Shown here piece after piece: positions 36,707 to 64,000 of a stretch of DNA of 64,000 nt (positions are counted from its first letter, which is position 1; each line of letters begins with the position of its first letter). A model generated the notes under the pieces. It did no database searches, was not told the origin of the DNA, and saw nothing but the letters and a program-made list of their open reading frames with translations. This DNA comes from Phycisphaerales bacterium JB040 (GTDB lineage Bacteria; Planctomycetota; Phycisphaerae; Phycisphaerales; UBA1924): positions 16,206 to 80,205 of the forward strand of contig JBICID010000101.1 of assembly GCA_043101615.1 (NCBI GenBank), in the 5' to 3' direction. The translations under genes and the position numbers were made by a program.

Positions 36707-36813
36707 CGGGACGCATCCGGCGGGAGGCCCCGGAAGTGGGCATGGGGGCCCGGCGCGAGCGCCGGGGCTCGCACGCGCGGAAAGTCCAGGCGGGCGCCTC
36801 CCAATACACTCTC

Positions 36814-37134
36814 ATGCAGATGGCCGCGACCGACCCATTCAACATCCGAGGGCGATTCGGGCACGACTACGAGCGCGTGTCGCGTGTGTACCGCATGGCC
36901 AACGCCCAGCCGTCGTGGGCGGCCCGCATGGCCGCGTTCATCGTCAGCACCATGGTGCTGCTCGTCGTGCTGGTGCTGCTGCTCCCGCTGATCCTGCTCG
37001 TCGCCCTGGCGGTGCTCGCGTTCGTGGCCTACGCCCGCCTGCGCCTCGCCATGGCCAGGCGTGGGTGGTTCACCCGCGACCCCGCCCACGACTCGGCGCG
37101 GCGCAACGTCCGCGTCCGTCGCCCGGAGGAGTGA
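36814..37134 (+). CDS. small hypothetical membrane protein
   Basis: 106 aa with one long hydrophobic stretch (AAFIVSTMVLLVVLVLLLPLILLVALAVLAFVAY). No RBS and no homology recognised. Confidence 0.4.
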   Translation: MQMAATDPFNIRGRFGHDYERVSRVYRMANAQPSWAARMAAFIVSTMVLLVVLVLLLPLILLVALAVLAFVAYARLRLAMARRGWFTRDPAHDSARRNVRVRRPEE

Positions 37135-37144
37135 CGGCGCACGC

Positions 37145-37972: not shown

Positions 37973-38128
37973 GAGCCCACGGTACGCCGCGTGGGCACGC
38001 GCGTCCGATTCCGGACCCCGAGACCCTGTTCGGGGCGTGCAATTCCTGCGAAAAGTCTTTCGCGATTCGGCCTCGCGCGATACCCTCTCAACGGCACGCA
38101 ACACGTCGTGCCGAGGGAGTCTTGAGCC

Positions 38129-41062: not shown

Positions 41063-41115
41063 CCCGCACGCCCGCCTCCCGAACCGACCGACCGCACGCC
41101 GCGTAAGGACTCACC

Positions 41116-43464: not shown

Positions 43465-43568
43465 GCACGGCCAAACCGGAAAATCTGGAGCGATCACGGG
43501 ATTCCGGGAACCGGTAGACCGAAACGCACCAATGTGGTGGTGTCGCAACTCCGTTCGGAGGCACCGCC

Positions 43569-46058
43569 ATGACCCGCTTGTCCGTGACTGTATTCCTCGT
43601 TGGGCTCGCCCTGATCCGCTGCGTGTCGGAGGCCCAGGTCTGTGAGCCGAGTTTCGAGCTGCCGAATCTGACTCACGTGGAATTCACAGAAAAGTCGGTC
43701 GCGCTGGCCGATTTCAACGGCGACGGGCGTGAGGACGCGCTCCTCGCGGAGCTCGGGCCCATGATCCGCGTGTACTTCGCGGGCGAGTCCGGGGCCTACG
43801 ACGGGGGCGTCGTCTCGATCGACACGGGCCTGCTTCAGAGCCAAATGGCCATCCCGGCGGACATGAACTCGGACGGACATCTGGACGTGCTCGGCATGGC
43901 GAGTGTCGGCTACCAGGTCTCGGACCCTCGTCAGTTGCAGTACTTCCCGGGAGATGGTGCGGGCGGATTCGGGCCGGGCGTCCTCCTCCCCACCACGCAG
44001 TTCTTCACGCTCGGCACCGTGGCACGGGTCGGGGACTTCGACGGCAACGGACGCACCGACGTGGTCTTCCGCACCGGGTCATACAATCAGAAGTACTACC
44101 GGGTGGTGTTCCAGAACACCGACGGCACGTTTGACCAGCCCGTCTCTCTGCCCGCGCCCGGCGTGGCGCCCCCGCGCGTGGCGGATTTCAACGAGGACGG
44201 GCTCGACGACATCGTGTACGAGCACGACAGGGACATGTCCATCGTGTTCGGGCGGGCAGACCGTGTGCTGACGGACCGTCTCGATCTCGGCCCGATCCTG
44301 CCTCCCACAAACGTTCAGCCGCCTTATGGCCCTGCCTACTTCGGAGATCCGTGGATCGGGGACTTCAACGCCGACGGGCACGCCGATCTCTTTCTGAGCA
44401 GGCCCGATACCTTCGGCCCCATGAAGCGTGTTGTCCTGCTCGGTGACGGTGCGGGCTCGATGGTCCTGGGCGACAAGGGGTTTATCCCGACCGGGAGCGT
44501 GATCAGTGGTCTGGCCGACATCGACCGCGACGGCGCAGACGAGCTCATCGCCACATACTTCGGCGACAGCTACCTGGTCGAGTTCGACGGCGACGAGATT
44601 GTCTCGTCCGCCTGGTACTACACCGAGGGACACACGTCCATGATCGCGCTCACCGAGATCGGAAACGGACCCGGGCCCGAGGTCTTCTTGGCGTTCACCG
44701 ACCCCGCAGGAATCCTCGCGGCCGAACTGATGAGCGACCACTTGCCGGCACTGCCGGAGCGAAACGTGTACGGCGCCGGGCACCAGCTCGATCGGGCCGT
44801 CAGGATTGACGCCGACGCCGATGGCTACTCCGAGCTCTTCGCGGAGGCGGGATACAACAACCTCTTCCACGTCCGGCGCGGCACCCAAGGGGGTGGCTTC
44901 GAGAGAGCCACTCAGACCTTTTTGACAGACGAGCGGGGAGAGCTGACGACGTGGACCGTTGGCGAATTCACCGGAGACGGAGTCCCGGATGTGGCTCTCT
45001 CGATGATCCCGTGCGACGGGTGCGAGCCGGAGGAAGCCCCGCACGAGCTGATGGTGCATCCGGGAGGAGTCGGTGCCGAGGGGTACTCCGTCTCGGACTC
45101 CCAGATCCGAAGCGGGGATTCCGGTGTCGACAGTCACGCGTTCGTCTCGATGGCGCCGCTGGATCTCGACGGCGACGGCGTGGACGACCTCGTCGCGACC
45201 CGCTATCTCACCGGGGACGGGCCGTACCTGCTCCGCAACGACGGAACGGGCGTGTTCACGCAGACCACCCTCCCCCCGCCGGACGGGGCCCTCAACCCGT
45301 TCCTCATCGGCGCGTTCGACGCCACCGGGGACGCACTCCCCGATCTGGTCGTCAACGCCGGGAGCAGCATCTACGTCTACCGGGGCACGCACGGACCGGG
45401 CGGGCTCGCGTTCCAGCCGCCCGACTCGCCCGCGGCGCCGGGGTTCTTCACGACCCTCACGGGCGTGTCCTACCCGCGCACGGCGGACCTGAACGGGGAC
45501 GGGCGGACCGACTTCGCGGTCGCCGGTTCGAGCGCCGGGCTCGCCGAGCTTCGCGTCTGGACCAACAACTCCGACGGCACGTTCACGCTCACCGTCCATC
45601 CCACGCAGTCGCCCTCCCCGTCGGGCGTGACCCCAACGCTCGCGCTGGGTGACCTGAACCACGATTCGCACCTGGACGCCGTCGTCGTGGGGGATGTTTC
45701 ACTGACGCTGCTGTCCGGGGACGGGTCCGGTGGATTCGTCGCCGGGACGCCGCAGAGCGTGTTCAAGTCATGCTCCAACTGCGATCCCTTCACGGTGCTC
45801 ATCACCGATGTCAACGGGGACGGGTGGAACGAGCTTCTCTCTGAAGACATATTCGAGCTCGTCGTCTGGCGTGATACCTGTCTGCCGGACCCCTGCCCCG
45901 CCGACGTCAACGCCGACGGCGTGCTCGACAACGCTGACATCGGGGCCTTCGTCAGGCTGTACCTGGGCGCCGACACGGGCGCGGACTTCAACGGGGACGG
46001 CGTCATCGACAGCGCCGATATCGGGGCCTTTGTGAGCGTGTTCCTGGCCGGCTGCTGA
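43569..46058 (+). CDS. secreted FG-GAP/VCBS-repeat protein with a C-terminal GC-ending dockerin-like module
   Basis: Repeated D-x-(N/D)-x-D-G-x-x-D loops in a propeller-like context (FNGDGREDAL, MNSDGHLDVL, GDFDGNGRTDVV, FNEDGLDDIV, FNADGHADLF, LDGDGVDDLV, LNGDGRTDFA). GGAGG precedes the ATG. The C-terminus is CPADVNADGVLDNADIGAFVRLYLGADTGADFNGDGVIDSADIGAFVSVFLAGC. Confidence 0.88.
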   Translation: MTRLSVTVFLVGLALIRCVSEAQVCEPSFELPNLTHVEFTEKSVALADFNGDGREDALLAELGPMIRVYFAGESGAYDGGVVSIDTGLLQSQMAIPADMNSDGHLDVLGMASVGYQVSDPRQLQYFPGDGAGGFGPGVLLPTTQFFTLGTVARVGDFDGNGRTDVVFRTGSYNQKYYRVVFQNTDGTFDQPVSLPAPGVAPPRVADFNEDGLDDIVYEHDRDMSIVFGRADRVLTDRLDLGPILPPTNVQPPYGPAYFGDPWIGDFNADGHADLFLSRPDTFGPMKRVVLLGDGAGSMVLGDKGFIPTGSVISGLADIDRDGADELIATYFGDSYLVEFDGDEIVSSAWYYTEGHTSMIALTEIGNGPGPEVFLAFTDPAGILAAELMSDHLPALPERNVYGAGHQLDRAVRIDADADGYSELFAEAGYNNLFHVRRGTQGGGFERATQTFLTDERGELTTWTVGEFTGDGVPDVALSMIPCDGCEPEEAPHELMVHPGGVGAEGYSVSDSQIRSGDSGVDSHAFVSMAPLDLDGDGVDDLVATRYLTGDGPYLLRNDGTGVFTQTTLPPPDGALNPFLIGAFDATGDALPDLVVNAGSSIYVYRGTHGPGGLAFQPPDSPAAPGFFTTLTGVSYPRTADLNGDGRTDFAVAGSSAGLAELRVWTNNSDGTFTLTVHPTQSPSPSGVTPTLALGDLNHDSHLDAVVVGDVSLTLLSGDGSGGFVAGTPQSVFKSCSNCDPFTVLITDVNGDGWNELLSEDIFELVVWRDTCLPDPCPADVNADGVLDNADIGAFVRLYLGADTGADFNGDGVIDSADIGAFVSVFLAGC

Positions 46059-48134: not shown

Positions 48135-48634
48135 GCGTGCTCCTGACCGGGACTGACCGGTCGATTCGACCCGTGGTGCCGGGGTCCACTCTACCGACCC
48201 TCGGAGCGACCCGTGGCGGGTTCCGAGCCAACTGTGGGGGTGGGTGGCACCTGTTCCGGTGGGTGGCTTGTCACAATTTTGACCACGCGCCGATCTCGCG
48301 CCGAACTTTCCCGCACGTTGGTGGTATGACAGGGGCAACGTCCGGTATGTTCCGGCGTTTAGCAACGCTCGATGCGCCTTGGATGCGGTTATCGGGCCAC
48401 GCCATCCGGTTACCGGACGCCCCACCCACACGACGTTCGACGTGTCACACCGGGGCGGTCGGGGACCCGATGAGGGGAGCCGTCTCCCCGGGTGGTGGTC
48501 CGATGCCGCCGGCTCGCGCGAGCACGACAGGTTCAGGTGACGGGCGACCCCCCCGACGTCGGGGGTCGCGGGCCGCAACACGTGACCGGCCCGCACGCCG
48601 CCCCTCACACCGGTTCAACAGTGGAGAAACGGTG

Positions 48635-51600
48635 ATGCAGAACAGACAGCGAAACAAGACCATCACGACGGGGCTGCTGGCCCTCGCGGTCGGCTCGGCG
48701 ATGAGCGTCGCGTGGGCCCCGCAGCCCGCCAACGCGTACGAGCCCCCGGCCGAGGGCGCCGACAGCGCGGTCGCGCCCTCGGGCCTCGAGTCCATCGATC
48801 TGGCGCAGCTGCAGGCGATGGCCCAGGCCCGGGCGTCGTCGAGCGCGCGCAAGGACGACAAGCCCGCGTGGAAGGACGTGTCGGAGGGCTTTACCAAGGT
48901 CATCTCGACCGCCGACGGCGGCAGCCTGTACAACGTCTTCCTCAACAAGGAGAAGAACCAGCTTCTGGCCGAGCTGCCACGTGGGTGGGAGCGCCAGAAG
49001 CACTTCTTCGCGATGACGGTCTCGAGCGGCGAGGAGTTCGCGGGCCTGCAGGCCGGCGACCTGTACGTGCAGTGGCAGAAGATCAACGACCGGCTCGCGC
49101 TGGTGCTGCCCCAGGTCAACGTCCGCTCGCTGGGCGAGGAGGGCTCGCGCGATTCGGTCGAGCGCCTGTTCACCGACCGCGTGCTGCTGTCGGTGCCGAT
49201 CGTCACCAACGGCCCCTCGGGCCAGCCGGTGATCGACCTGGACGACCTGCTGGTGGGCAACGCCGGTCGCTTCTTCGGCGGCTCGGCCGCGGGGCTCAAC
49301 TCGGGCCTGACGACGGTCGAGAAGGTCAAGGCGTTCCCCGAGAACATCGAGGTGACGCTGAAGGGCCCGGTCGCGAACGGGACGTTCAAGTCGTTCCACT
49401 ACTCGATCTCTCGGATCCAGGGCACGCCGGGCTTCCAGCCCCGCAAGGCGGACGAGCGTGTCGGGTTCTTCACGACCTCGTTCCAGGACTACGGGACGTA
49501 CGACCGCAACGAGCTGAACGTGCGGTACGCCAACCGCTGGCACCTGGAGAAGGCGGACCCGAAGCTGAAGATGAGCCCCCCCAAGGAGCCCATCATCTAC
49601 TACGTCGAGCACACCGTGCCCGTGCGCTACCGGCGCTGGGTCAAGGAGGGCATCGAGTACTGGAACAAGGCGTTCGAGAACATCGGCATCATCGGGGCGA
49701 TCGAGGTGCGCTACCAGGACAAGGCGTCCGGGGCGCACATGGAGAAGGACCCCGAGGACGTCCGCTACAACTTCATCCGCTGGCTGCACAACAACGTGTC
49801 CACGGCCATCGGCCCGAGCCGCGTCAACCCCGAGACGGGTGAGATCCTGGACGCCGACGTGGTGCTGACCGACGGCTGGATCCGCGTGTTCACCTACCGC
49901 TGGAGCGAGCTGCTGCCCGACCTGGCGATGGAGGGCATGAGCCCCGAGACCATGGCCTGGCTGGAGGCCAACCCGGAGTGGGACCCGCGCGTGCGTCTGG
50001 CCGAGCCCGCCGAGCGGTCCAACATCCTGGCCGAGCGCCGGGCCCGCGGGGTGTCGCGCTACGGCGGGCACCCGGCGGCGGTGTCGTCCGACTCGCCTCT
50101 GGTGGGCCACAGCGAGTTCGACGGCCTGCACCGCACCTCGCAGTCGGCCGGGCTGTGCCACGCCGCGAGCGGCAAGGCCCTCGCCCTGGCCCAGATGCAG
50201 ATGTACCTCTCGGCGCTGCCGGCGATCACCGCGGCGCAGTGCGTGTGCGACCACGGGACCGAGGCCGGCCTGACCGCCGTCGCCCGCGGCCCGGACGACC
50301 AGCCGGAGCTGGACGAGGACACGATCGAGCGTCTGCGCAAGCAGATCGAGGCCAACCCGGCGCTGGCGGAGATGATCCCCGAGTCGTACAAGGCCGCGCT
50401 CGGACTGACCCAGCCCGAGCAGCCGGAGGAGGCCGAGGACGGGGCCGAGGAGAAGCCCGAGGCCTGCGCCGCCTGCGGCGAGGACGGGTGCACCTGCGCC
50501 GAGGGCGAGTGCACCTGCGCCAAGAAGGACCAGGGCCAGCTGCTGGACGGCAACCCCGAGTGGTTCGTCGGCCCGATGCTCGCCGAGCTGGTCGCGCACG
50601 AGGTCGGTCACACCATCGGCCTGCGTCACAACTTCAAGGGCTCGTCCACCTACGAGTTCAGCGAGATCAACTCCGAGGAGTTCAGGGGCAGCAAGCCCTG
50701 GTCCAACTCGGTGATGGACTACAACGGCATCAACATCCGCATGCCCGGCTTCGCCGACGCGCAGGGTGACTACTCGGTGATCGACATCGGCCCGTACGAC
50801 ATGTGGGCCATCGAGTACGGCTACGGCTTCGGCGACCCCGCCGAGGTCGCCAAGCGTGCCGCGGAGCCCGAGCTGCAGTACGCCACCGACGAGGACACCT
50901 GGGGCCCCGATCCCTACGCCCGCCGGTACGACCTGGCCAAGGACACCATCACCTACGCCCGGAACCAGATGGCCCTGGCCCAGACCCTGCGCGAGTCCAT
51001 CCTCGAGAACTTCGTCGAGGAGGGCGAGAGCTGGTCGAACGCGCGGCGCGGCTACCAGACCACGCTGTCAACCCAGCTCTCCAGCCTGTCCATGATGGCC
51101 AACTGGGTCGGCACGGCGCACGTCTACCGCGACAAGAAGGGCGACCCGAACGGGCGCGCCCCCATCGAGGTCGTGGACGCCGCCAAGCAGCGCGAGGCCC
51201 TCAACTTCGTCATCGAGAACTCGTTCAACGACGAGGCGTACGGCCTGACCCCCGACCTGCTCCAGTACCTGACCGTGGACAAGTGGTGGGACACCGGCGG
51301 CATGAGCTCCATCATGACCGACCCGACCTACCAGATCCACGACACCATCCTGGGCGTGCAGGCCTCGGCGATGACCATGCTGCTCAACCCGACCACCCTG
51401 CAGCGCGTCTACGACCTGGAGCGGTTCGTGCAGGAGGGCGACGACGCCCTCACGCTGCCCGAGGTCATGGGCACCATCTCCGACGCCGCCTGGTCCGAGC
51501 TCGACGGCTCGCACGACGGCTCCTTCACAGCCCGCAAGCCGATGGTGTCCTCGCTGCGGCGCAACCTGCAGCGAGAGCACGTCTCCAGGCTCATCGACCT

Positions 51601-51871
51601 GTCGATGGACCAGGGCGGCTACTCGTCGGCCGGGAAGGCCGTCAAGACGCTGGCCACCCAGCAGCTCCGAGACCTGCACGCCAGGATCGAGAGCGTGCTG
51701 AGCAACGGCGCCCAGGGCAAGGCCGACCCGTACACACGGGCACACTTCAACGAGATCGCCCTCCGCATCGAGAAGGCCCTCGACGCACAGTTCATCTACA
51801 ACACCGACGACATCTCCGCGGGCGGCGGCGGCGTCATCTTCCTCGGACAGACCGCCCAGCCCGGCGAGTAA
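48635..51871 (+). CDS. large secreted zinc-dependent metalloprotease (HExxHxxGxxH)
   Basis: HEVGHTIGLRHNF plus a downstream SVMDY. Signal-like MQNRQRNKTITTGLLALAVGSAMSVAWA. GGAGAAACGGTG precedes the ATG. There is a Cys-rich insert, CAACGEDGCTCAEGECTC. The upstream 166 aa of the ORF-track entry are rejected. Confidence 0.88.
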   Translation: MQNRQRNKTITTGLLALAVGSAMSVAWAPQPANAYEPPAEGADSAVAPSGLESIDLAQLQAMAQARASSSARKDDKPAWKDVSEGFTKVISTADGGSLYNVFLNKEKNQLLAELPRGWERQKHFFAMTVSSGEEFAGLQAGDLYVQWQKINDRLALVLPQVNVRSLGEEGSRDSVERLFTDRVLLSVPIVTNGPSGQPVIDLDDLLVGNAGRFFGGSAAGLNSGLTTVEKVKAFPENIEVTLKGPVANGTFKSFHYSISRIQGTPGFQPRKADERVGFFTTSFQDYGTYDRNELNVRYANRWHLEKADPKLKMSPPKEPIIYYVEHTVPVRYRRWVKEGIEYWNKAFENIGIIGAIEVRYQDKASGAHMEKDPEDVRYNFIRWLHNNVSTAIGPSRVNPETGEILDADVVLTDGWIRVFTYRWSELLPDLAMEGMSPETMAWLEANPEWDPRVRLAEPAERSNILAERRARGVSRYGGHPAAVSSDSPLVGHSEFDGLHRTSQSAGLCHAASGKALALAQMQMYLSALPAITAAQCVCDHGTEAGLTAVARGPDDQPELDEDTIERLRKQIEANPALAEMIPESYKAALGLTQPEQPEEAEDGAEEKPEACAACGEDGCTCAEGECTCAKKDQGQLLDGNPEWFVGPMLAELVAHEVGHTIGLRHNFKGSSTYEFSEINSEEFRGSKPWSNSVMDYNGINIRMPGFADAQGDYSVIDIGPYDMWAIEYGYGFGDPAEVAKRAAEPELQYATDEDTWGPDPYARRYDLAKDTITYARNQMALAQTLRESILENFVEEGESWSNARRGYQTTLSTQLSSLSMMANWVGTAHVYRDKKGDPNGRAPIEVVDAAKQREALNFVIENSFNDEAYGLTPDLLQYLTVDKWWDTGGMSSIMTDPTYQIHDTILGVQASAMTMLLNPTTLQRVYDLERFVQEGDDALTLPEVMGTISDAAWSELDGSHDGSFTARKPMVSSLRRNLQREHVSRLIDLSMDQGGYSSAGKAVKTLATQQLRDLHARIESVLSNGAQGKADPYTRAHFNEIALRIEKALDAQFIYNTDDISAGGGGVIFLGQTAQPGE

Positions 51872-51923
51872 GCACGCCACCACACGGGCGACCTGAACCA
51901 CCGCCCGTACTCGTTTCTCCACG

Positions 51924-51962
51924 GCGGGCGGCCCCGATCACCTCGGGGTCGCCCGCTTCTTT
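51924..51962 (+). terminator. rho-independent terminator of the metalloprotease gene
   Basis: gcgggcggccccga-tcacc-tcggggtcgcccgc forms a 14-bp stem including one G-U pair, followed by ttctttgt. Confidence 0.75.
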
Positions 51963-51963
51963 G

Positions 51964-52154
51964 TAGGCACTAGGCATTAGGCACTAGGCATTAGGTGTTG
52001 GGTCTGTACTGGCTGAAGGGTGGCGCCACCTGGACAGGCGGCGTCCGGCTGATCCATTTCACCGATCAATAGCACCAACTCCTATTGCCTAGTGCCTAAT
52101 GCCTGATGCCTGATACCAAGTGCCTGCTGTCGCGTGCCTACTCCCCGGTGCCTC
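51964..52154. repeat. two opposed arrays of 7-bp-phased heptamers (TAGGCAY on the left, RTGCCTR on the right) flanking an ~86-bp spacer
   Basis: Left, 51964-51998: taggcac taggcat taggcac taggcat taggtgt. Right, 52085-52154: ttgccta gtgccta atgcctg atgcctg ataccaa gtgcctg ctgtcgc gtgccta ctccccg gtgcctc. The two arrays are reverse complements of each other. Local G+C is low. Confidence 0.8.
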
Positions 52155-52169
52155 TCCCTACCATCGCCC

Positions 52170-53084
52170 ATGCCCGATCCCGCTCCCGATGTCTTTCTCA
52201 ACGGCGCCTTCGTGTCTCGGCGCGACGCGCGCGTCTCGGCCTTCGACGCGGCGTTCCAGCACGCCGTGGGCCTCTTCGAGACCATGTCGGCCCGCATCGA
52301 CCCCGAGGGCGTGCCCCACATCGAACGCCTCGAGGCCCACCTCGAGCGTCTCGTCACCTCGGCCATGGAGCTCGGGCTGGTCGAGCGCCTCCGGGCCCAG
52401 CCGCTGGCCGACGCCGCCCTCGAGACCGTCCGCCGGGCGGGGCACGAGCGCGCCCGCGTCCGGCTCACGCTCACCGGGGGCGACCTCAACATGCTCGAGC
52501 AGGGGGCCGGCTCGCAGCACGACCCCACCCTGCTGATCGTCTCCCAGCCGGCCACCCGCTATCCCGATGCGCTCTTCGAGCGCGGGGGCGCCGCGGTCAT
52601 CGCCGACGCCAAGGCCAACCCGCTCGACCCCACCGCGGGCCACAAGACGCTGAACTACTGGTGGCGCCTGCGCGAGCTGCAGCGGGCCGCTCGCGCCGGC
52701 GCGGCCGAGGCGGTCGTCCTCCAGGTCTCCAACCACCTCGCAGGCGGGACGGTCTCCAACCTGTTCGTGGTCAAGGGCGGGACGCTGTTCACCCCGATCG
52801 CACGGGGCGAGGAGGAGGACGTGGGGGGGCCCGGGTCGATCCCCTCTCCGGTGCTGCCCGGGACGACCCGGCATCAGGTGATCGAGCTGGCCGAGTCCAA
52901 GCGCCTCGGGTGTGCCCGGAAGATGCTCGACGTGAACGACCTGCTGGACGCGGACGAGGTGTTCCTTACGAATTCCTCATGGGGCGTTCTCCCCATTGTG
53001 AAGATAGAGAAGGAAGCCATCGCCGACGCCGTGCCCGGCCCGGTGACCCGGGACCTCCGGGCCGCACTTCTGGGCTCCGAGTAG
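52170..53084 (+). CDS. class IV aminotransferase family protein (branched-chain aminotransferase / aminodeoxychorismate-lyase-like)
   Basis: FLNGAFVSRRDARVSAFDAAFQHAVGLFET...GHKTLNYW...LPGTTRHQVIEL...EVFLTNSSWGVLPI, the fold-type IV PLP enzyme blocks. Confidence 0.85.
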   Translation: MPDPAPDVFLNGAFVSRRDARVSAFDAAFQHAVGLFETMSARIDPEGVPHIERLEAHLERLVTSAMELGLVERLRAQPLADAALETVRRAGHERARVRLTLTGGDLNMLEQGAGSQHDPTLLIVSQPATRYPDALFERGGAAVIADAKANPLDPTAGHKTLNYWWRLRELQRAARAGAAEAVVLQVSNHLAGGTVSNLFVVKGGTLFTPIARGEEEDVGGPGSIPSPVLPGTTRHQVIELAESKRLGCARKMLDVNDLLDADEVFLTNSSWGVLPIVKIEKEAIADAVPGPVTRDLRAALLGSE

Positions 53085-53501
53085 CGATAATCCACGACTG
53101 TCGCGTCCCGCACCGACTTTCACATTTCCTTGGTCGATCCGAAACCGGGCCGTCGCGCGGCACGAATCGAAGCACGGCCTTGGCTTGCTCAGGCCGTTCG
53201 AAATGGGGCGTCCCGCCACGATCTGATGCGGGCCATCCGCCCTGGTGTCCGACGCTGGAACGGTCGGACCGCACAACCAACGATCCGCGCGGTCTCAAGC
53301 CGAGATCGCGACCGACCGCCGTCTGATGCCGGGTGGGTAGGACTTCCCAGCACTCAGCGAGCACGCTCCGAGCATTCGCCCCGGACGGGGCGACGGAGTC
53401 TTCACGCCCCGGCGCGATCGCGGGGCGACGATCGAGGAGAGAGGGGGGGCGGTGAGGACGGGGGGAGGGAACCGACCGCCGGAGTGTGTGCCCGGCGGAC
53501 C

Positions 53502-53534
53502 CGGGCCGCGTGTGTGATGCCGCGGCCCGTTTTT
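53502..53534 (+). terminator. plus-strand rho-independent terminator at the end of a roughly 430-bp non-coding region
   Basis: cgggccgcg (53502-53510) pairs perfectly with cgcggcccg (53521-53529) around a 10-nt loop, followed by TTTTT (53530-53534). The T-run overlaps the TAA stop of the convergent sulfotransferase gene. Confidence 0.7.
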
Positions 53535-54360
53535 AGTCGTACCCGTGTTGCGCCATGGCCTCGGCGAACGCGCCCTCGAACGCGTCGTCCAGGCCGGCCC
53601 CCCCCTTGATCGCCTCGTCCAGCCGGCGACCGCTCCGGCCCGAGTGCATGAACAGGGCGCCCTTGCGTGCTCCCGCGGCGTCGCCCACGAACAGGCGCTT
53701 GTCCAGGCTCTTCTTCTTCGGGTCGTTCTTCTCGCGGACCTCCAGGGCCCGCATCGCGTCGAACGAGCCGGCCCTCACCGCGCCAGCCACGGCCTCGTCG
53801 CTCGCCTCGATGCCCAGGAACGCCAGCACCCCGCGCAGCACGCCGGGCGTGTCCGCCTGCAGGTCCTCGTAGCGGACGCGGTGCACCGGGAAGCCGGGCG
53901 CGCTCCAGCTCGACGCGTGCCCGGCCCACGTCCCGAAGCCGCGCTGGGCGAAGCCCGGATCACCGCCCGCGCGGATGAACAGCTCGGCGTAGGCCCGGTC
54001 GCTGAGCTGGCCCGGGGTCGTGCCGGCCAGGCGGAGGTAGTTCAGACCGGAGAGCAGCACGTCGCGCGGGTGACGGATGACGTGCACGGCCCCCCACGTG
54101 CGGTCCAGGTGCGGGTGGCGCTCGGAGAGTTCGAAGTGGGTCTTCATCACGAGACGACCCCCGTACCCCCCGCCCGAGGCGGCCCGGGCCTCGGCCCCGG
54201 CGTCGGTGGGCATGGCACGGTGGACGTCCGGGATGCTGGCCGAGACCTCGACGCTCTGCGCGATGCTCCCGTGCACCGCGGCGTGCAGCAGGAACCGCAG
54301 CCAGGTGTTCCCGCTCTTGGGGTAGGAGGCCAGCCAGACGATCTCGGCGCTGCTCATCAC
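53533..54360 (-). CDS. sulfotransferase domain protein (PAPS-dependent)
   Basis: 5'-PSB loop SYPKSGNTWLRFLL and 3'-PB-like VIRHPRDVLLSG. Confidence 0.88.
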   Translation of the reverse strand: MMSSAEIVWLASYPKSGNTWLRFLLHAAVHGSIAQSVEVSASIPDVHRAMPTDAGAEARAASGGGYGGRLVMKTHFELSERHPHLDRTWGAVHVIRHPRDVLLSGLNYLRLAGTTPGQLSDRAYAELFIRAGGDPGFAQRGFGTWAGHASSWSAPGFPVHRVRYEDLQADTPGVLRGVLAFLGIEASDEAVAGAVRAGSFDAMRALEVREKNDPKKKSLDKRLFVGDAAGARKGALFMHSGRSGRRLDEAIKGGAGLDDAFEGAFAEAMAQHGYD

Positions 54361-54578
54361 CCAATATAGGCCCGGGCCCCTGCGCCCCAGCCGGGCGACC
54401 TATGATCCGTCAGGTCGCGGCCAGAGCGAACCCGGGGGATCTCTCCGCCCGAGCGCCGAAGCACCACGCGCGACCACCACACCAGGCCGAGGAAAGCTGC
54501 GGCGCGGCGTTCGCGACGGGCTCTCCGGTTCGGCGAACCACTCGCCGCGGGCACGAATCCGCGGCCCACAGGCGACCC

Positions 54579-56336
54579 ATGACCGACGAAGACCGCACCC
54601 CCCCCACCCCCCCCACCCCCTCCAAGCCCTCCGAGAACCCCGCCGACACCAGCAGCACCGACGCACCGGCCAAGAAGAAGCGCCGGCGCCGGCGCGGGAA
54701 GCGCGGCGGGAAGAAGACCACCGACGACGCACCCCAGGGCGAGTCCGGCTCCGACGCCGGCTCCGAGTCCGGGTCCGACAACGGCGCCGCGGACGCCCAC
54801 GATCGATCCGACTCGGACGACCGACCCCGGAAGAAGCGGCGCCGGCGAGGCAAGAGCGGGGGGGACGCCGGCGGGCGGGGCGAGGGCGGCGGGCGCCGTC
54901 GCGGGGGACGCGACAAGGACGCCGAGATCGAGCCGGAGCGCAAGCGCCGGGTCGAGCACGCGGTCTTCAGCCCCGAGACCTTCGACACCGACAAGACCTT
55001 CTCTGACCTGGGCCTGGGCGAGAAGACCATCGCGGGCATCGACCACGCCGGCTTCAGGCACCCCACCCACATCCAGTCCACGCTGATCCCCGTCGCCCTC
55101 ACCGGCAAGGACATCATCGGGCAGGCCAAGACCGGCACGGGCAAGACGCTCGCGTTCGGCATCCCCATCCTAGACCGGTGCGAGCCGGGCGTGCCCGGGC
55201 AGGCCCTCATCCTGGGCCCCACGCGCGAGCTGGCGGTGCAGATCCGCCAGGACCTCGACGAGGTCGCCCACGGCACCGGACTCTCCACCGTCGCGGTGTA
55301 CGGCGGGCAGTCCATCAACACCCAGGCCAACAAGCTGCGCGAGGGGCCCGAGATCATCGTCGGCACCCCGGGACGCGTCATGGACATGGTCAACCGCGGC
55401 TACATGTCGTTCTCAGACGTCCGCTTCGCGGTGCTCGACGAGGTCGACCGCATGTTCGACTTCGGCTTCCGCGACGACATGAAGAAGATCCTGTCGGCCT
55501 GCCCGAAGGACCGGCAGACCATCTTCGTCTCCGCCACGATGACCGACGAGATCGAGGGCCTGGCCCGGCGCTACATGCGCGAGCCGGAGAAGCTGGTGGT
55601 CTCGACGGGTTCGCTGACGGTGGACCTGGTCACGCAGAGCTACGTGTCGGTCGAGCCGTGGGACAAGAAGCGGATGCTGGCCCACCTGCTGACGCACGAG
55701 GAGCCCGCGGTCACCCTGGTCTTCTGCCGCATGAAGCGGACCGTGGACTCCGTGGTGCGCTACCTGGAACGCAAGAACATCGACGCGCACGCGATCCACG
55801 GCGACCTGTCGCAGGGCGAGCGCAACAAGGTGATGGGGCGCTTCCGCGACGGCTCGCTGTCGGTGCTGGTCGCGTCCGACCTGGCCAGCCGCGGGATCGA
55901 CGTCGAGGGCATCACGCACGTCGTGAACTTCGACCTGCCCGACGACCCGGACGTGTACGTGCACCGCATCGGACGCACGGCCCGCGCCGGGCGCGAGGGC
56001 GTGGCGTGGTCGCTGGTGCGCTCGGACGAGGGCAAGCTGCTCTCCGAGATCGAGAACCTGATCAACGCCGAGATCCCGGAGCGCAAGTACCCGGACTTCG
56101 AGCCCTCCGAGAAGCCCGAGGGCTGGAAGGACGAGCCGCGCGGCGGGCGCCCGGTGCTCGAGATCAAGGGCGTGGACAGCACGCCCAAGAAGAACCGCCT
56201 GGCCCAGGACGACGTGCCCGACGCGACGAAGATGGACGAGAAGGAACTCGCGGCCAAGTTCCCGGGCGGCGTGGTGCCCAAGAAGAAGCCCCGGCGCACG
56301 CTGGGAGGACGCGTCCGCACCCGCGGCGGGCGGTAA
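54579..56336 (+). CDS. DEAD-box ATP-dependent RNA helicase with a Lys/Arg/Gly-rich N-terminal extension
   Basis: Q-motif region FSDLGL...GFRHPTHIQ, then AKTGTGKT, VLDEVD, SAT and HRIGRTARAG. The N-terminal ~130 aa are KKKRRRRRGKRGG/RRRGGRDKD-like. Confidence 0.92.
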   Translation: MTDEDRTPPTPPTPSKPSENPADTSSTDAPAKKKRRRRRGKRGGKKTTDDAPQGESGSDAGSESGSDNGAADAHDRSDSDDRPRKKRRRRGKSGGDAGGRGEGGGRRRGGRDKDAEIEPERKRRVEHAVFSPETFDTDKTFSDLGLGEKTIAGIDHAGFRHPTHIQSTLIPVALTGKDIIGQAKTGTGKTLAFGIPILDRCEPGVPGQALILGPTRELAVQIRQDLDEVAHGTGLSTVAVYGGQSINTQANKLREGPEIIVGTPGRVMDMVNRGYMSFSDVRFAVLDEVDRMFDFGFRDDMKKILSACPKDRQTIFVSATMTDEIEGLARRYMREPEKLVVSTGSLTVDLVTQSYVSVEPWDKKRMLAHLLTHEEPAVTLVFCRMKRTVDSVVRYLERKNIDAHAIHGDLSQGERNKVMGRFRDGSLSVLVASDLASRGIDVEGITHVVNFDLPDDPDVYVHRIGRTARAGREGVAWSLVRSDEGKLLSEIENLINAEIPERKYPDFEPSEKPEGWKDEPRGGRPVLEIKGVDSTPKKNRLAQDDVPDATKMDEKELAAKFPGGVVPKKKPRRTLGGRVRTRGGR

Positions 56337-56349
56337 ACCCCAGATCCGA

Positions 56350-56439
56350 GCCGCGGGCGTAAGCACGCGGCCTTGTCTCCATTTGAGTCGCGCCAATACC
56401 AGCCGCGTGCGTGAGCACGCGGGGAGGGCGTTGAACGCC
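56350..56439. repeat. two copies of a 21-nt GNRA-capped hairpin plus a third small hairpin
   Basis: gccgcgggcgtaagcacgcgg (56350-56370) and gccgcgtgcgtgagcacgcgg (56402-56422). Stems are 8 bp, with loops GTAA and GTGA. A third hairpin, ggcg-ttgaa-cgcc, is at 56427-56439. Confidence 0.7.
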
Positions 56440-56455
56440 ATGCAATCGACAGAGT

Positions 56456-57379
56456 TTACGTTTCGTCGAAGTAGTCGGTATCGATCGCTTTGACGGTGTA
56501 AGTCGCGGTTTCGGTGACACCGATGCCGAAGTCGATCATGTACCGGGCGAGTTGCTTTCCGTCGATCAGCACGATCTTCTTCTCGATTTTTCGCACGTAG
56601 TCGTGTGCTTCTGAAGAAAACGCTGACGTGGTGATGAAGACGCCTTTCCTCGCACGGAAGCCTTCGAGACTTCCGGCAAATGCCTGGATATCAGGCCGAC
56701 CCACAGTGTTCTGCCAGCGTTTCGCCTGTATGTACACGGCATCGAGACCGAGCTTGTCTTCCTTGATGATCCCATCGATCCCGGCGTCTCCCGAGCGACC
56801 GACTGCCTGGCCCGCATCGGATCTGGAGCCACCATACCCCATGGCGACCAATAGATCGACAACCAGGCGCTCGAATGCTTCGGGCGTGTTCGACTTGATT
56901 GTGGTCAAGAGCTCGTCGGCCAGCGAGGCCCGGATGGTCTCGTAGTTTGCTTGCATGAGCTCTTCGGGTGTTTGCTCATCTCCAATGTCATCGTCTGTCG
57001 GCGAACTGTCCTTTTTCGTTTCTCCTGTTGGTGTCGTGTCCTTCTTGAACTCGACATATCCCTCGTATTGCTCCAGGTCCTTAAGTGTCAGGCCTGATGG
57101 GCTTTGATTCAGGAGCTCAAGACCCGCGCTCGTGATCCTGTACTTTCCTTTGCCTGTGGCTTCGAGCAGCCCCGCTTTTTTGAGGTACTGACAAGCCCAT
57201 GTCACTCGGTTGTACAGGCGTGTCTGGCTCCCGCTGGGGAGTACCGTGGAACGATCTTCCTGGCTCAGATTGAAGTGATCGGCGAGTGGCCCGACTTCTT
57301 CACGCATCCTCTTTTCCTGCCCGTCCTTGGCCCGGGACAGCATCGGTAGCATGAACTCGTGAAACTTTGGTACAGCCAT
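56456..57379 (-). CDS. mrr: Mrr-family restriction endonuclease (Mrr_N winged-helix plus Mrr catalytic domain)
   Basis: The N-terminus MAVPKFHEFMLPMLS...RVTWACQYLKKAGLL matches Mrr_N. The catalytic core is GIDGIIKEDKLGLDAVYIQAKRW. Hand-counted 60-nt stretches give roughly 50-55% G+C, clearly lower than the neighbouring genes. Confidence 0.9.
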   Translation of the reverse strand: MAVPKFHEFMLPMLSRAKDGQEKRMREEVGPLADHFNLSQEDRSTVLPSGSQTRLYNRVTWACQYLKKAGLLEATGKGKYRITSAGLELLNQSPSGLTLKDLEQYEGYVEFKKDTTPTGETKKDSSPTDDDIGDEQTPEELMQANYETIRASLADELLTTIKSNTPEAFERLVVDLLVAMGYGGSRSDAGQAVGRSGDAGIDGIIKEDKLGLDAVYIQAKRWQNTVGRPDIQAFAGSLEGFRARKGVFITTSAFSSEAHDYVRKIEKKIVLIDGKQLARYMIDFGIGVTETATYTVKAIDTDYFDET

Positions 57380-57590
57380 GTGGGCAGAGTACCACCTGAA
57401 GCAATGCTTTGGTCCGTCTCTGATTCGGAGTCGAATGAAGTACGAAAGCCTGATCGGACGTGTCGAAAACTCGGTTCACAGTACGGCTTGAATTCAGAAT
57501 GCCCAATATTTCTGTGTGATCTCACCGCGTGATTGTCGCTCCATTCAGGTCCGCCCATACAAACCGGCCCTCCCGATACACTGAACGATC

Positions 57591-60155
57591 GTGAACGACG
57601 ACCCGACCATACGCACCGACGACACGCCCGATTCCGAGGCCCCGACGACGGACGGGGTGCCGACGGGGCCGCGCACGCCGGGTTCCGGCAAGGGGTCGGG
57701 CACGCCGTCGAACCCGGTCCCGACCCCCGACGACGTCCCGACCTCCGCGGCGTCGCACCCGACCGCCGGTGCCGGTGATGGCGAGCATCCCGATCGGGTC
57801 GGGCGGTACCGCGTCGTGCGGACGCTGGGCGAGGGCGGGTTCGGGATCGTGTACGAGGCCGAGCAGACCGAGCCGGTGCGTCGTCGTGTGGCGCTCAAGC
57901 TGATCAAGCCGGGCATGGACTCGAAGGCGGTGCTCGCGCGGTTTGAGGCCGAGCGCCAGGCGCTGGCGCTCATGGACCACCCGGGCGTCGCCCGGGTCTT
58001 CGACGGGGGGCTGAGCGAGCAGGGGCGCCCGTACTTCGCGATGGAGCTGGTGCGGGGGGTGCCGATCACGAAGTACTGCGACACGAACAAGGTTCCGGTG
58101 CGCGACCGGCTGGAGCTGTTCGCGAAGGTGTGCGAGGCGGTGCAGCACGCGCACAACAAGGGCGTGATCCACCGCGACCTGAAGCCCTCGAACATCCTGG
58201 TGGAAGAGATCGACGGCGAGATGGCGCCCAAGGTCATCGATTTCGGCGTCGCCAAGGCGATCCACCAGCCGCTCACGCAGCAGACGGTGTTCACGCAGCA
58301 CGGCCAGATGATCGGCACGCCCGAGTACATGAGCCCGGAACAGGCGGAGATCGGCGCGGAGGACATCGACACGCGTTCGGACGTGTACTCGCTGGGGGTG
58401 GTGCTGTACGAGTTGCTGACGGGGTCTCGCCCGTTCGAGCCGGAGCGGCTGCGACTGGCCGGCTTCGCCGAGATCCAGCGGATCATCCGGGAGGAGCCCC
58501 CGGCCCGCCCGAGCACGAGGCTGAGCTCGCTGGCGTCGTCGGCGGGCGCCGACCGCGACCGCGCCAGCCGCGCGGCCGAGCAGCGCCGCACCTAGCTCAA
58601 CAGCCTCACCGGACTGTTGAAGCGCGACCTGGACTGGGTCGTGATGCGCTGCCTTGAGAAGGACCGGCGTCGCCGGTACGAGACACCGACCGAGCTGGCC
58701 AGCGAGGTGCGTCGCTTCCTGCACCACCAGCCCGTGCTCGCGGGCCCGCCGTCCGCGGCCTACCGCATGAGCAAGTTCCTGCGCCGCAACCGTGGCCCGG
58801 TCGCGGCGGGGTGCGCCGTGGGGCTGGCATTGGTGTTGGGGCTGGCGGGCACCGCCGCGGGTTTGGCCCGGTCCGCGGCGGCCGAGGAGATCGCGGAGCT
58901 GCGCCGATCCCAGATCGAGTCCTCCGCCCTGCTGGTCGCCTCGATGTTCGACGCGGTCGCGGCCCCCACGCGGGCCGACGCCCCGACCGACCCACGCGGC
59001 ACCGCGATGGCGCTCAGCGAGCGTGTCGAGGCGGTCGCGGGCGACGCGGGCGGCGTGTACGCCCTGCTGGCCGAGACACTGCGCGACGCGGGCGACCTGG
59101 GCACCTGGGCGGAGCTGGAGCGGATGCGGATCCTGGAGCGCGAGCGCGCGGGCGAGCTCGCCCCGGAGCAGGCGTCCGAGCGCCTGGGGAGCGTCGCGGT
59201 CACGCTGCGCGATCGCGGCGTGCCGGACCGGGCGGCGGACCACATGCTGGCGCTGGCGCAGCGTCCGAGCGACGACCCGACCATCCCGGTGATGTGGTAC
59301 CGGCGCGGGGCGGAGCAGCTGCTCATCGCCGACAAGCCCTCGCAGGCCCTGGAGGCGGCGGAGGCCGGCTACCGGCTCGCCGCCCAGCACGTCCCGCTCG
59401 GCGACAAGGGGCGCGTGCTGATGACCGTGGTCTACACCGACGCCCTGCAGCGCGTCGACGACGTGCGGACGGCCCTGGACGTCTGGCAGGCCGAGATCGA
59501 CGGCGACGCCAGCCAGGACGACCGCGAGCGCGCGTCCCGCCTCGAGAACCTGGCCCGCCTGCAACGCTCCGTCGGCGAGCGAGAAGCGGCCGAGCAGACC
59601 TTTACACGCGCCATCGGCCTGTACCAGCAGATGGGCGCCCACGCCTACGACGCCCTGCGCCTGCGCCGAGAGCGGGCGGCGCTGCGCCTCGAGCTGGGCC
59701 AGACCGCGCAGGCCATCGCCGACCTGGAGTCCGTCATCGATGCGTTCGAGCTGATCGTGGAGCCCGGAGACCCGCACCTGCTCTGGGCCAGGCGCTCGCT
59801 CGCCGAGGCGCTGCTCGAGGCCGGCGAGCACGAGCGCGTGGTGCGCGAGCTGCCGCGCACGCTGGTCCGGACGCGCCTGACCTACGGCAGCCTCGACAAC
59901 GGGACGATCAACGCCCTGGAGCTGCTCTCGCACGCGATGCTCGACTCGGGCCTGCACGCCGCGTCGGAGCAGCTCCTGCTCACCGCGATCAACGCGATCG
60001 AGACGCGCGGGTACGAGGCGGACGCCCGCTACCTCCGGTCGGACTACGAGCGGCTGGTCGCACTGTACGAGCGGTGGGGGAACGAGCCGGACCGCCCGGC
60101 CGACCTGGACGAGCGCCGGGCGGAGGCGCAGGCTAGGCTCGAGGCGCTGCGCTGA
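57591..60155 (+). pseudogene. Ser/Thr protein kinase with a TM segment and a TPR-like C-terminal region, interrupted by one in-frame TAG (58593-58595)
   Basis: The kinase motifs [25 protein letters not shown] and [10 protein letters not shown] lie in ORF 57591..58595. The same frame continues after the TAG as LNSLTGLLKRDLDWVVMRCLEKDRRRRYETPTELA..., which is the conserved C-lobe continuation. A TM helix (AAGCAVGLALVLGLAGTAAG) and helical repeats then run to 60155. Confidence 0.8.
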
Positions 60156-60267
60156 GCCCACCGGGTGGCGTGCAGACCGCGAGGCGCTCCCACGAGTCCG
60201 ACCCACCCGCATGGACAAGCCCGCGGCGTGTCCGTGGCACCCGAACGCGGCTCGGTTCGGTGCGGGA

Positions 60268-61287
60268 TCAGCACCCCGCCAGGAAGATCTGCACGAACGC
60301 CCCGATGTCGCCGTTGTCCAGGATGCCGTCGTTGGTGAAGTCCGCCCGCAGGCTCCCCGCGAGGAAGAGCGACACGAACGCCCCGATGTCGCCGTTGTCC
60401 AGCACGCCGTCGTTGTTGATGTCGCCCGGGCAGCTCTGCACCAGCGGCGCGAGCGTCAGCCCGCCGATCGTGTCGGGGTGGTCCACCTGCCCGCCCGAGG
60501 ACCACGCGAGCGGGTTGACGGACAGATCCATCTCGATCTGGTGCCGGCTGAACGCCGCGAAGCTCGGGTCGGAGTTCTGCACCATGTAGGAGTACACCGT
60601 GTTCGTCGCCGGGTCGTGCGTGATGTCGGTCAGGAAGAGCGGGATGGTCCCGAGCTGTGCGAGGCCGGAGGTGTCGAGATTGGTGGTCGTGAGCTGGAGC
60701 GTGTTGAAGTTGGTCCCGTTCACGTCGATCGCGAGGAACTGCCCCGTCAGCGTGTTGAACGCGGAGCTGTCGTTGTCGCGGTCGTTGATCGCGAGCAGGG
60801 ACGTCGCCCCGGTGTCCGGGTCGACGCCGATGATCTCGGACGAGAGGAACAGCTCACCGAACAGGTCGAAGAAGACGTCGTCGGTGTTGGGCACCAGGTA
60901 CAGGTCCCGCCCCGGGTCGTAGGCGATCGAGTCGTACAGCTGCGTCACCGCGGTGTTGCCCAGCGAGAACAGCACGCTGCCGGCCCCGGTCGCCCGGTCG
61001 ATCTCCGCCAGGTACTGGTCCCAGGTGTCGTCGGCGGTGCGGTAGACAAGGTACAGGGTGACCAGCCGGTCCCGGGCCGAGTCGTAGCACAGCTCGCCCA
61101 CGCCGTACGGCGAGCCCTGCGGACGGACGGGCGAGGACAGCCCGTGCGCCCCGACCACGGTGACGTCGGACGGATCCGAGGCGTCCCAACGGACCAGGTC
61201 GGTCCGCGTCAGCCCGTAGACCGTCTGGGCCGAGGCGACGGAGGACAGGGCGGCGAGTGCGGCAACGGCTGCGGCGTGCGTGTTCAT
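60268..61287 (-). CDS. secreted hypothetical protein (339 aa) with a C-terminal GC-ending dockerin-like module
   Basis: Signal-like MNTHAAAVAALAALSSVASAQ. The C-terminus is CPGDINNDGVLDNGDIGAFVSLFLAGSLRADFTNDGILDNGDIGAFVQIFLAGC-stop. Confidence 0.85.
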   Translation of the reverse strand: MNTHAAAVAALAALSSVASAQTVYGLTRTDLVRWDASDPSDVTVVGAHGLSSPVRPQGSPYGVGELCYDSARDRLVTLYLVYRTADDTWDQYLAEIDRATGAGSVLFSLGNTAVTQLYDSIAYDPGRDLYLVPNTDDVFFDLFGELFLSSEIIGVDPDTGATSLLAINDRDNDSSAFNTLTGQFLAIDVNGTNFNTLQLTTTNLDTSGLAQLGTIPLFLTDITHDPATNTVYSYMVQNSDPSFAAFSRHQIEMDLSVNPLAWSSGGQVDHPDTIGGLTLAPLVQSCPGDINNDGVLDNGDIGAFVSLFLAGSLRADFTNDGILDNGDIGAFVQIFLAGC

Positions 61288-61479
61288 GGGGATGCTTCCG
61301 GGGGATTGGCGCACCTGACGCGGGGCGCTCCGCCTCTGTTCTACCAGACTCCGTGCGTAGAACGCCACAAAGTTGTGCAAAATCCTCCCCGATTCCGACG
61401 AAACGGGGCCCGCCGGGCCCCGAACGGGTTGCTGCGACGCGGCGGGATCGGGCGCCGGGAGGGCGGCGCGCCGGGGGGG

Positions 61480-62544
<1,065 letters not shown>

Positions 62545-62699
62545 GGGTCGCTTTCGTGCGGAGAGTTGAGAAACGCTTCGGGGACGGCACCTACGACGCA
62601 CCCGGCCAAACGGTTCGCCGACCGGGGCGTGTGCGGGCCCGGTCGCGGGGACGGATTGTTGTCATCGGGCGACGGTGGGGGTCGATCGAGCGGGAGTTT

Positions 62700-64000
62700 T
62701 TAGGGCCCGGGCGAGGAGCTCGGAGTACGCGGGGGGTCGCCCGGCTCCCTGTTCTCGGGCGTTGTGCCTGGCGCTGCCCCCTCGGGTCTCTCCACGCCGA
62801 AGACGTCCGGGGCTTGCTTGTCGGGGTCGCGGTCGCCACCGAGCACCGCGAGCACCGTGAACGCCCCGAGGAAGCAGGCAAGCGCCGCGAGTGAGGCGAG
62901 CCCGATCGGGAGCGTGCGACGGGGCCCGGGCCCGCGTGCGTGGGTCTCGGCACAGGCGATCGCCATGAGCATCAGCAGGAAGGGCTCGTGGTACCGCTGC
63001 CACACGTTGGCCGAGGCGGTCTGCGACAGCGCAAAGCCCAGCAGCCCCAGCCCCATGATCCAGCGCGAGCGGGGCGAGAGCGCCGCCCCCCACAGCAGCA
63101 GCGCGACCGCGCCAGCGGGGGCCCCCAGCAGGACCAGCACCGAGGTGTGGCCCGCGATCACCGGCAGCCGGCGGACCACGTTCCACCAGCCCGAGGCTCT
63201 CCCCTCGTCGAACGACCACGTGGTCTCCGGAACGATCGCCAGCACGATCGCCGGCACGCACGCGATCACGACGAGCGCGATCGTGCGCCAGTCCGGGCGG
63301 GCCCGGAGCCACCGGGGCAGCAGCCACGGCGCGAAGAAGACCGACAGCACCGCGATCTCCAGCAGCAGGAACGCCGGCAGCGAGGGCGACCACGACTGTG
63401 TCGTCACCTGGAACCGGGGCGGCGTCAGCCCGCCCCACAGCCGGTAGAACCACCCGACGATCGCGAAGGCCGGCAGCGTGCACGCCACGCCCAGCAGCGT
63501 GCGGGGCAGCCGGCGTTTCACGCCCGCCCAGAGCGGTCGCTCCGCGTCGTGGTCGGGGGCCATCCACGCGCCCAGCCACACCAGCCCCGCCGCCCACAGG
63601 TGGATCTGGCGGGTGAACACCAGCAGCGCCAGCAGAACGCCCGAGACCGCAAGCCCGCCCGGCGAGACACGCCCCGCGAGCGTGCGCAGCAGGACCGCCA
63701 GCACCAGCAGCCAGGCCAGGTTGTCTGGCAGCACGAACACGCCGGGCAGCAGCGTGTAGTTCGAGGCGATCAGGGGCAGCGTGAGCGCGACGCCCAGCAG
63801 CGGGGGAGCACGCCTCACCAGCGCCCGCGCCAGCACGAACAGCAGCACGGCCGTGATGACCGCCGAGCACACCCGCATCGACGGGACCGAGTCCAGCCCG
63901 GCGCGCACGGGCAGCGCCAGCAGCAGGTGGTACCCCGGCGTGGTGGCGGTGAGGTAGTTGGAGAAGTCCGGGGCGGGCAACTGCTCGGCCAGGGCGCGGA
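62700..64000 (-). CDS. polytopic integral membrane protein, GT-C-like (ArnT/PMT-type glycosyltransferase?); the N-terminus probably lies beyond the right edge
   Basis: At least 10 hydrophobic segments. The reading frame stays open up to position 64000 (RALAEQLPAPDFSNYL...), so the TTG start in the ORF track is probably not the real start. The family assignment is tentative. Confidence 0.55.
   Translation of the reverse strand, partial: RALAEQLPAPDFSNYLTATTPGYHLLLALPVRAGLDSVPSMRVCSAVITAVLLFVLARALVRRAPPLLGVALTLPLIASNYTLLPGVFVLPDNLAWLLVLAVLLRTLAGRVSPGGLAVSGVLLALLVFTRQIHLWAAGLVWLGAWMAPDHDAERPLWAGVKRRLPRTLLGVACTLPAFAIVGWFYRLWGGLTPPRFQVTTQSWSPSLPAFLLLEIAVLSVFFAPWLLPRWLRARPDWRTIALVVIACVPAIVLAIVPETTWSFDEGRASGWWNVVRRLPVIAGHTSVLVLLGAPAGAVALLLWGAALSPRSRWIMGLGLLGFALSQTASANVWQRYHEPFLLMLMAIACAETHARGPGPRRTLPIGLASLAALACFLGAFTVLAVLGGDRDPDKQAPDVFGVERPEGAAPGTTPENREPGDPPRTPSSSPGP

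Follow-up and report, generated by a model that had tools for sequence, protein, structure and literature searches.

The stretch of DNA analysed here, referred to as the window, is 64,000 nucleotides long and comes from Phycisphaerales bacterium JB040 (GenBank assembly GCA_043101615.1, contig JBICID010000101.1, here C101, positions 16206-80205 of the forward strand). Its source is a metagenome-assembled genome (MAG) of 3.57 Mb in 146 contigs that is 94% complete. The window contains a gene for a Hanks-type Ser/Thr kinase whose reading frame is broken by a single TAG codon, and this codon is the subject of the present report. A first-pass annotation, made from the letters of the window alone, had described two open reading frames (ORFs) in a common frame with the TAG as their sole interruption, and both the translation and the ORF listing bore this out. 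The frame runs from a GTG at 57591 to a TGA at 60153-60155, and its only break is the TAG at 58593-58595, codon 335, which leaves ORFs of 334 amino acids (aa; 57591..58595) and 512 aa (58617..60155, with a TTG start). The features of the gene and of the other loci discussed below are collected in Table 1.

The Pfam kinase profile Pkinase (PF00069) matched residues 73-365 of the read-through protein over profile positions 1-254 of 263 (E = 2.6e-42, 145.5 bits against a gathering cut-off of 31.7). When the 334-aa N-terminal part was searched alone, the match stopped at profile position 219, and the TAG as deposited divides profile positions 1-219 from positions 220-254. Since the match of the full protein crosses the TAG and that of the N-terminal part reaches position 219 only, the stop lies inside the kinase fold. 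An uninterrupted C-lobe, with helices αH and αI and the subdomain XI Arg in one polypeptide, is absent from the gene as deposited and would be restored only by an erroneous TAG or by its read-through. All the catalytic motifs are intact (GEGGFG at residues 80-85, VALK at 100-103, HRDLKPSN at 194-201, DFG at 217-219 and GTPEYMSPE at 242-250), as is the αH block DLDWVVMRCLEKDRRRRY at residues 346-363. A transmembrane (TM) helix and TPR-like repeats had also been proposed downstream of the stop. The helix was readily found at residues 402-426, but the repeats stood less firmly: the TPR_12, TPR_9 and TPR_7 matches in the C-terminal domain were weak and every one fell under its Pfam cut-off, and the NCBIfam FxSxx_TPR match in this domain reached 28 bits. 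In a genome of ~70% G+C, the length of an open frame by itself says little about coding. We regard the downstream part as coding because of its homology, its G+C content at third codon positions (GC3; 0.94 before the stop and 0.95 after it) and the ratio of nonsynonymous to synonymous substitution (dN/dS) given below, and not because of ORF length. On the minus strand, a frame at 57522..60218 is open for 898 codons across the whole kinase gene and is an artefact of G+C content.

The kinase belongs to a family that is large and fast-diversifying in Phycisphaerales and other Planctomycetota, the groups from which the MAGs used as relatives throughout this work were drawn. There were ~20 paralogous matches in the source genome and dozens in each relative genome. 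That the block across the stop is contiguous in the family, as had been claimed, was confirmed by an alignment of 109 homologue loci (117 segments), which was continuous through ...RPSTRL...RRT[E/D]hxxL...LRRDLDWVVMxCLEKDRxRRY.... At the position of the TAG, 44 of these segments carried Asp, 38 Glu and 17 a gap, and none of the 109 loci was split there. The closest solved structure was PDB 9EED chain A ('Kinase domain protein'), which aligned with residues 68-377, across the stop (E = 1e-52), and took in both the family-specific insert and αH/αI. The alignment with PknB covered residues 71-311 (E about 1e-39), and that with PknA likewise ran from 71 to ~310. In the NCBIfam search no equivalog cut-off was reached by the kinase protein. 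The Stk1/PknB PASTA kinase model NF033483 gave 232.6 bits against a cut-off of 450, with the kinase part (residues 71-285) alone matching, and PASTA repeats were not found in the protein. We therefore describe the product, as predicted from its sequence, as a generic Hanks-type receptor Ser/Thr kinase. It resembles other Hanks-type receptor kinases (PknB and PknA of Mycobacterium, StkP) in having all Hanks motifs and in joining a cytoplasmic kinase to an extracytoplasmic sensor through one TM helix; it differs from them in its sensor, which is helical and weakly TPR-like and not of the PASTA type. The gene is part of an expansion in Planctomycetota, Gemmatimonadota and Acidobacteriota that is marked by the C-lobe block ...RRT[E/D]...LRRDLDWVVMKCLEKDRxRRY.... 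In one relative, G004 (C3:134500-139000, minus strand), a kinase remnant ends with ...PEQAEMGALDIIRS and a stop codon, and the next gene is rpmE (ribosomal protein L31), immediately after it; the remnant is a genuine truncated member of the family.

A search of a large protein collection yielded one true orthologue, a protein of 857 aa (P0002) with 88% aa identity over 98% of the query, which aligned without gaps over 839 residues and is not split at the TAG site. Its gene, from a sister species, was present on JGI metagenome contigs from three independent samples with identical DNA in all three, and the gene order of these contigs matches that of the window for 16 kb or more (window 48285-63989). 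Comparison with orthologues had been suggested by the first-pass annotation as a check on the stop. Codon 335 of the sister-species gene is GAG (Glu), from which the TAG of the window differs by a single G>T transversion. Synonymous divergence between the two genes (dS) was ~0.52. By the Nei-Gojobori method, dN/dS was 0.142 over codons 1-334 and 0.145 over codons 336-854, and closer to the stop it was 0.059 in the kinase core before it (codons 69-334) and 0.067 over codons 336-400 after it. The only gap in the codon alignment was 3 extra codons at the C-terminus of the orthologue, with no internal indels, and no second stop occurred in the 519 codons after the TAG. The signs of a decaying pseudogene, namely raised dN/dS, indels or further stops downstream, were thus all missing in the comparison with the orthologue. 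As nothing has decayed, the change at codon 335 is either extremely recent or not real.

The whole genome was scanned in six frames for stops lying between open coding-like stretches, which were defined by GC3 of at least 0.85 and by a higher G+C content at first than at second codon positions (GC1 > GC2). Most matches were ordinary adjacent genes sharing a frame. Three were exceptions, the valS gene, the mqnE gene and a gene for an unnamed 1544-aa protein, which brought the lone in-frame TAGs in this record to at least four; no TGA or TAA interruption of an intact gene was seen in the scan. The interrupted valS is the only valyl-tRNA synthetase (ValRS) gene in the genome. Its TAG lies within ...LLGAFNPT-TAG-VLCTGRDII..., the same-genus genome G001 has TCG (Ser) at this codon, and the valS matches from 25 relative genomes contained no stop. 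In mqnE, the TIGR03700 alignment crosses the TAG, and 12 relative genomes have the gene intact with GAG, GAC, CTG and other codons at the site. The 1544-aa protein is uninterrupted in 7 relative genomes, and the same-genus genome has TAC at the site of the TAG. A null valS is not viable, nor is a null mqnE in a menaquinone-dependent organism. Since these two genes cannot be null, the four TAGs cannot all be genuine knock-outs. A process that adds spurious or read-through TAGs is therefore already needed to account for the record, and the same process suffices for the TAG in the kinase. The lesion seen in the kinase is in this way found again in single-copy essential genes, and it is absent from all relatives examined. 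A recurrent internal stop in the family kinases of 40 relative genomes was considered and rejected: four matches were flagged (3 TAG, 1 TGA), and they proved to be alignment overruns or the truncated remnant beside rpmE. With these cleared, the in-frame TAGs are specific to the source record. All four TAGs stand in C-TAG-C/G contexts (CCTAGC, CCTAGG, GCTAGG and GCTAGC). As a separate observation on base composition, CTAG is extremely rare genome-wide, with 586 occurrences observed versus ~9850 expected (ratio 0.06), and TCGA and CTCGAG are over-represented 3.2-fold and 2.9-fold, respectively.

The first-pass annotation had judged a genome-wide reassignment of TAG unlikely on the ground that TAG serves as a genuine stop elsewhere in the window. 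Both of its examples were correct, the ORF with a HIT motif (...HLHVHLVPRW...) ending in TAG at 6116-6118 and the ORF ending at 22642, and the results from the whole genome agreed with its judgement. ARAGORN predicted 52 tRNAs, none with a CUA anticodon even at 90% of the default threshold, although in a 94%-complete genome this absence is not absolute, and PylS (TIGR02367) had no match in the source genome. At C108:4211-4303, ARAGORN also called a 'tRNA-???' of 93 nt whose anticodon has four bases (ggcg); this call could be false or could mark an unusual tRNA-like element. The gene for release factor 1 (RF1, prfA) is represented by its first 139 codons (contig C31:1-381, minus strand), where the contig edge cuts it, and its C-terminal part was not found elsewhere in the assembly; RF1 is complete in 10/10 relatives searched. 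RF2 is complete at C141:29336-30355, ~1.7 kb from valS. Of 2176 coding-like stretches in the genome, 248 (~11%) end in TAG, and backup stops within 10 codons follow TAG no more often than TGA (9.5% versus 9.8%). By codon usage, 72% of the single-base routes to a stop in this genome give TAG, with GAG>TAG as the largest route, which means that the restriction of the interruptions to TAG needs no special mechanism. An apparent enrichment of TAG at same-frame coding/stop/coding junctions (15/70 against the 11% baseline) was rejected as a sign of recoding; most of these junctions are adjacent genes, and codon usage alone predicts TAG for 72% of nonsense changes.

We believe that the TAG in the kinase is probably a base-call or consensus error in the draft MAG, and that the real gene would be intact and ordinary, with 854 codons for a Hanks kinase that carries one TM helix and a weakly TPR-like sensor. 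Of the four options that the first-pass annotation had listed without ranking them, namely a very recent nonsense mutation, an error of sequencing or assembly, programmed read-through and a functional split, it is the error branch that the evidence favours, because the TAG is one step from GAG, nothing has decayed around it, like TAGs occur in essential genes, and no recoding machinery was found. In this account, a single G>T error in base calling or in the consensus of a fragmented MAG would have turned GAG (Glu) into TAG, and the TAG would be absent from the organism's DNA or from most of its cells. The technical cause may be low coverage and/or C>A/G>T damage from oxidised guanine. At both sites where the ancestral codon can be securely inferred (GAG>TAG in the kinase and TCG>TAG in valS), the change is a G:C>T:A transversion at a CpG, the GAG being preceded by C. 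This is the class of change produced by 8-oxoguanine (8-oxoG) damage in library preparation (Costello et al. 2013, NAR, PMC3616734); the hotspot published for it is CCG>CAG, and the allele fractions of the artefact are low (PMC3616734). Our case differs from it in that the context is TCG>TAG and in that very low coverage would be required for the artefact to enter the consensus. An 8-oxoG signature drawn from two to three events is suggestive only. That 'pseudogenes' with internal stops can arise from the assembler, the platform and low coverage is also documented (Cooley & Wright 2024, BMC Genomics, PMC11017572). The present TAGs resemble those cases in that a lone stop lies in an intact conserved gene, several occur in one record and some of them in essential genes, the relatives are intact, and the assembly is fragmented. 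Proof in that study came from reassembly of the reads, unlike here, where the attribution is inferential.

Several points weigh against an assembly error. The only independent sequence found near the site, through a look-up of the Mrr gene beside the kinase, was a Logan contig (SRR30568140, 1575 bp) that is identical to window 56400-57974, Mrr included, and thus falls 619 bases short of the TAG. No independent assembly over the site came from JGI metagenome contigs either, in which the exact pattern with NNN in place of the TAG codon had 0 matches. Among the invariant residues of ValRS we counted 7 lineage-specific changes, none of the G>T class. This lack of a G>T excess implies a low error rate, of order 1e-5 per base, at which such a count of residues carries little information, and four nonsense changes at such a rate are plausible but not demonstrated. 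The kinase comes from a paralogous family of ~20 members and is the type of gene that can be lost for real. Finally, all four TAGs are at positions that vary among relatives, as tolerated read-through would also predict. Protein look-ups gave no further sequence across the site: exact searches with the 512-aa C-terminal part and with the full-length protein carrying Glu at the TAG found none on record, and searches for fragment-sized proteins at the kinase and valS TAGs returned only the source's own 334-aa piece and no near-identical fragment.

If the TAG is real, it could be a very recent nonsense allele (GAG>TAG), fixed or segregating, that makes the kinase a nascent pseudogene and leaves the TAGs in valS and mqnE as unrelated errors. 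The 334-aa product would then lack αH/αI, the TM anchor and the sensor, and would probably be unstable and inactive. The paralogues in the genome make the kinase dispensable in principle, and turnover in the family is fast, as seen in G001, which has no orthologue of the kinase (best match 62%), and in the truncated remnant of G004. No other single-base route to a stop is, moreover, as common in this genome as GAG>TAG. We nevertheless consider such an allele unlikely, given that selection is not relaxed downstream of the stop and internal indels are missing, and that the like lesion is present in genes that cannot be null. With 2/4 TAGs in essential genes, most of the TAGs would be due to the spurious-TAG process that the record already requires. 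A functional fission, in which a soluble truncated kinase of 334 aa and a membrane protein of 512 aa restarted at TTG 58617 work jointly or apart, appears hardly credible. It would fit the start-capable TTG 7 codons past the stop, which was accepted by the gene caller, and the coding signature kept in both halves. The cut, on the other hand, falls inside the kinase fold, before αH/αI and the conserved Arg of CLEKDRxRRY, and the C-terminal part would begin with two orphan kinase helices. The restart at this TTG, one of the options raised by the first-pass annotation, also fared poorly in that no purine-rich Shine-Dalgarno sequence is visible 5' of it (...CTCACCGGACTG TTG) and the product would start within the kinase C-lobe. 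None of the homologue loci nor the orthologue has such a split, and selection has not had time to shape so recent a change.

The four TAGs could instead all be real and be read through by an unrecognised suppressor tRNA, by near-cognate decoding or with a weakened RF1, so that the kinase, ValRS and MqnE are made at full length and at useful levels. In-frame TAGs in single-copy essential genes of a 94%-complete genome would be explained directly in this way, and the four interruptions do share the TAG codon, the variable positions and the C-TAG-C/G context. RF1, seen only up to the contig edge, is of unproven integrity. The likeness to amber recoding, in pyrrolysine systems or with natural amber suppressors, lies in the presence of in-frame TAGs within genes that need to be expressed. 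Unlike in those systems, neither PylS nor a tRNA with a CUA anticodon was found, the TAG sites are outside methyltransferase genes, the relatives have differing residues and no TAG at these sites, and TAG is a common terminator with no excess of backup stops behind it. The residues replaced vary from site to site (Glu in the kinase, Ser in valS, Glu/Asp and possibly Tyr at the others), and no single inserted amino acid is apparent. The TAG-only pattern is the one expected from codon usage, and part of an RF1 gene that is complete in the relatives is present. Taken with the tRNA and RF1 results, these differences make read-through of all four TAGs, in our view, very improbable.

Read literally, the record would present a sensor kinase that is split or dying, or else read-through of a stop codon. 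The evidence points instead to an ordinary intact gene with a one-base blemish, and an assembly error of this kind carries a lesson on data quality, as at least four spurious-looking amber codons are present in one MAG. Annotation pipelines will call valS, mqnE and the kinase pseudogenes or split genes, and metabolic and signalling inferences drawn from such calls need correction. Should the TAGs be real after all, a Phycisphaerales lineage would be expressing essential genes through amber codons while TAG still ends ~11% of its genes. This would amount to appreciable natural UAG read-through in a planctomycete, and its source could be a suppressor tRNA absent from the assembly, near-cognate decoding or an RF1 that has been damaged.

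Table 1. Features of the interrupted kinase gene, its Mrr neighbour and the other genes with lone in-frame TAGs. Positions are those of the window unless a contig is named.
Feature	Position	Strand	Details
Whole Hanks-type Ser/Thr kinase / TM / TPR-like gene	57591..60155	+	854 codons if codon 335 is sense; GTG start, TGA stop
N-terminal low-complexity Pro/Thr/Asp-rich tail, codons 1-68	57591..57794	+	Translation; evolves fast (dN/dS 0.50 in the comparison with the orthologue)
Protein kinase domain, residues 73-365	57807..58685	+	Pfam PF00069; PDB 9EED_A alignment; motifs
In-frame TAG, codon 335	58593..58595	+	Context ACC-TAG-CTC; in family-specific insert between the αG region and helix αH
TTG used by the gene caller as start of the 512-aa downstream ORF (P0003)	58617..58619	+	ORF listing
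Single TM helix GPVAAGCAVGLALVLGLAGTAAGLA, residues 402-426	58794..58868	+	Kyte-Doolittle maximum 2.04 at residues 404-422
Extracytoplasmic C-terminal helical domain, residues 426-854	58866..60152	+	Weak TPR-like repeats at ~651-749; dN/dS 0.15-0.16
Mrr-type restriction endonuclease, 307 aa, G+C 0.554	56456..57379	-	Divergent from the kinase; Pfam Mrr_N/Mrr_cat on the orthologous gene
valS, TAG first base 25736	Contig C141, gene ~27617-24450	-	...LLGAFNPT-TAG-VLCTGRDIITLWVSRMVMF...KMSKS...
mqnE (aminofutalosine synthase), TAG 27889-27891	Contig C98	+	...GERLSLADG-TAG-VLYTTDDLW..., 49 codons into the open frame
1544-codon open frame without Pfam or NCBIfam name, TAG first base 84479	Contig C89	-	...ASDPDGG-TAG-LEGDLLTV...

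The kinase gene had been noted to lie directly beside a low-G+C Mrr islet. The islet is real, but it has no bearing on the stop. In the sister species, an Mrr gene with a G+C content of 0.566 occupies the equivalent place and is likewise divergent from the kinase (sister-species sequence L111:8897-9820). Since it stands there beside an intact kinase, the islet is older than the split between the two species, and it was ruled out as a cause of the stop. With a G+C content of 0.55 against 0.70 for the genome, the Mrr gene was acquired long ago and has not ameliorated since. On the other side of the kinase, the conserved region 3' of the gene (window 60246-61257; L111:12757-13768) starts with a segment of ~165 nt (window from ~60246; L111 ~12781-12944). 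This segment recurs in the window at 28465, 29412, 30928, 40896, 43299 and 45893, within the stretch 28465-46056, with 71-86% identity, and is a dispersed dockerin-like module.

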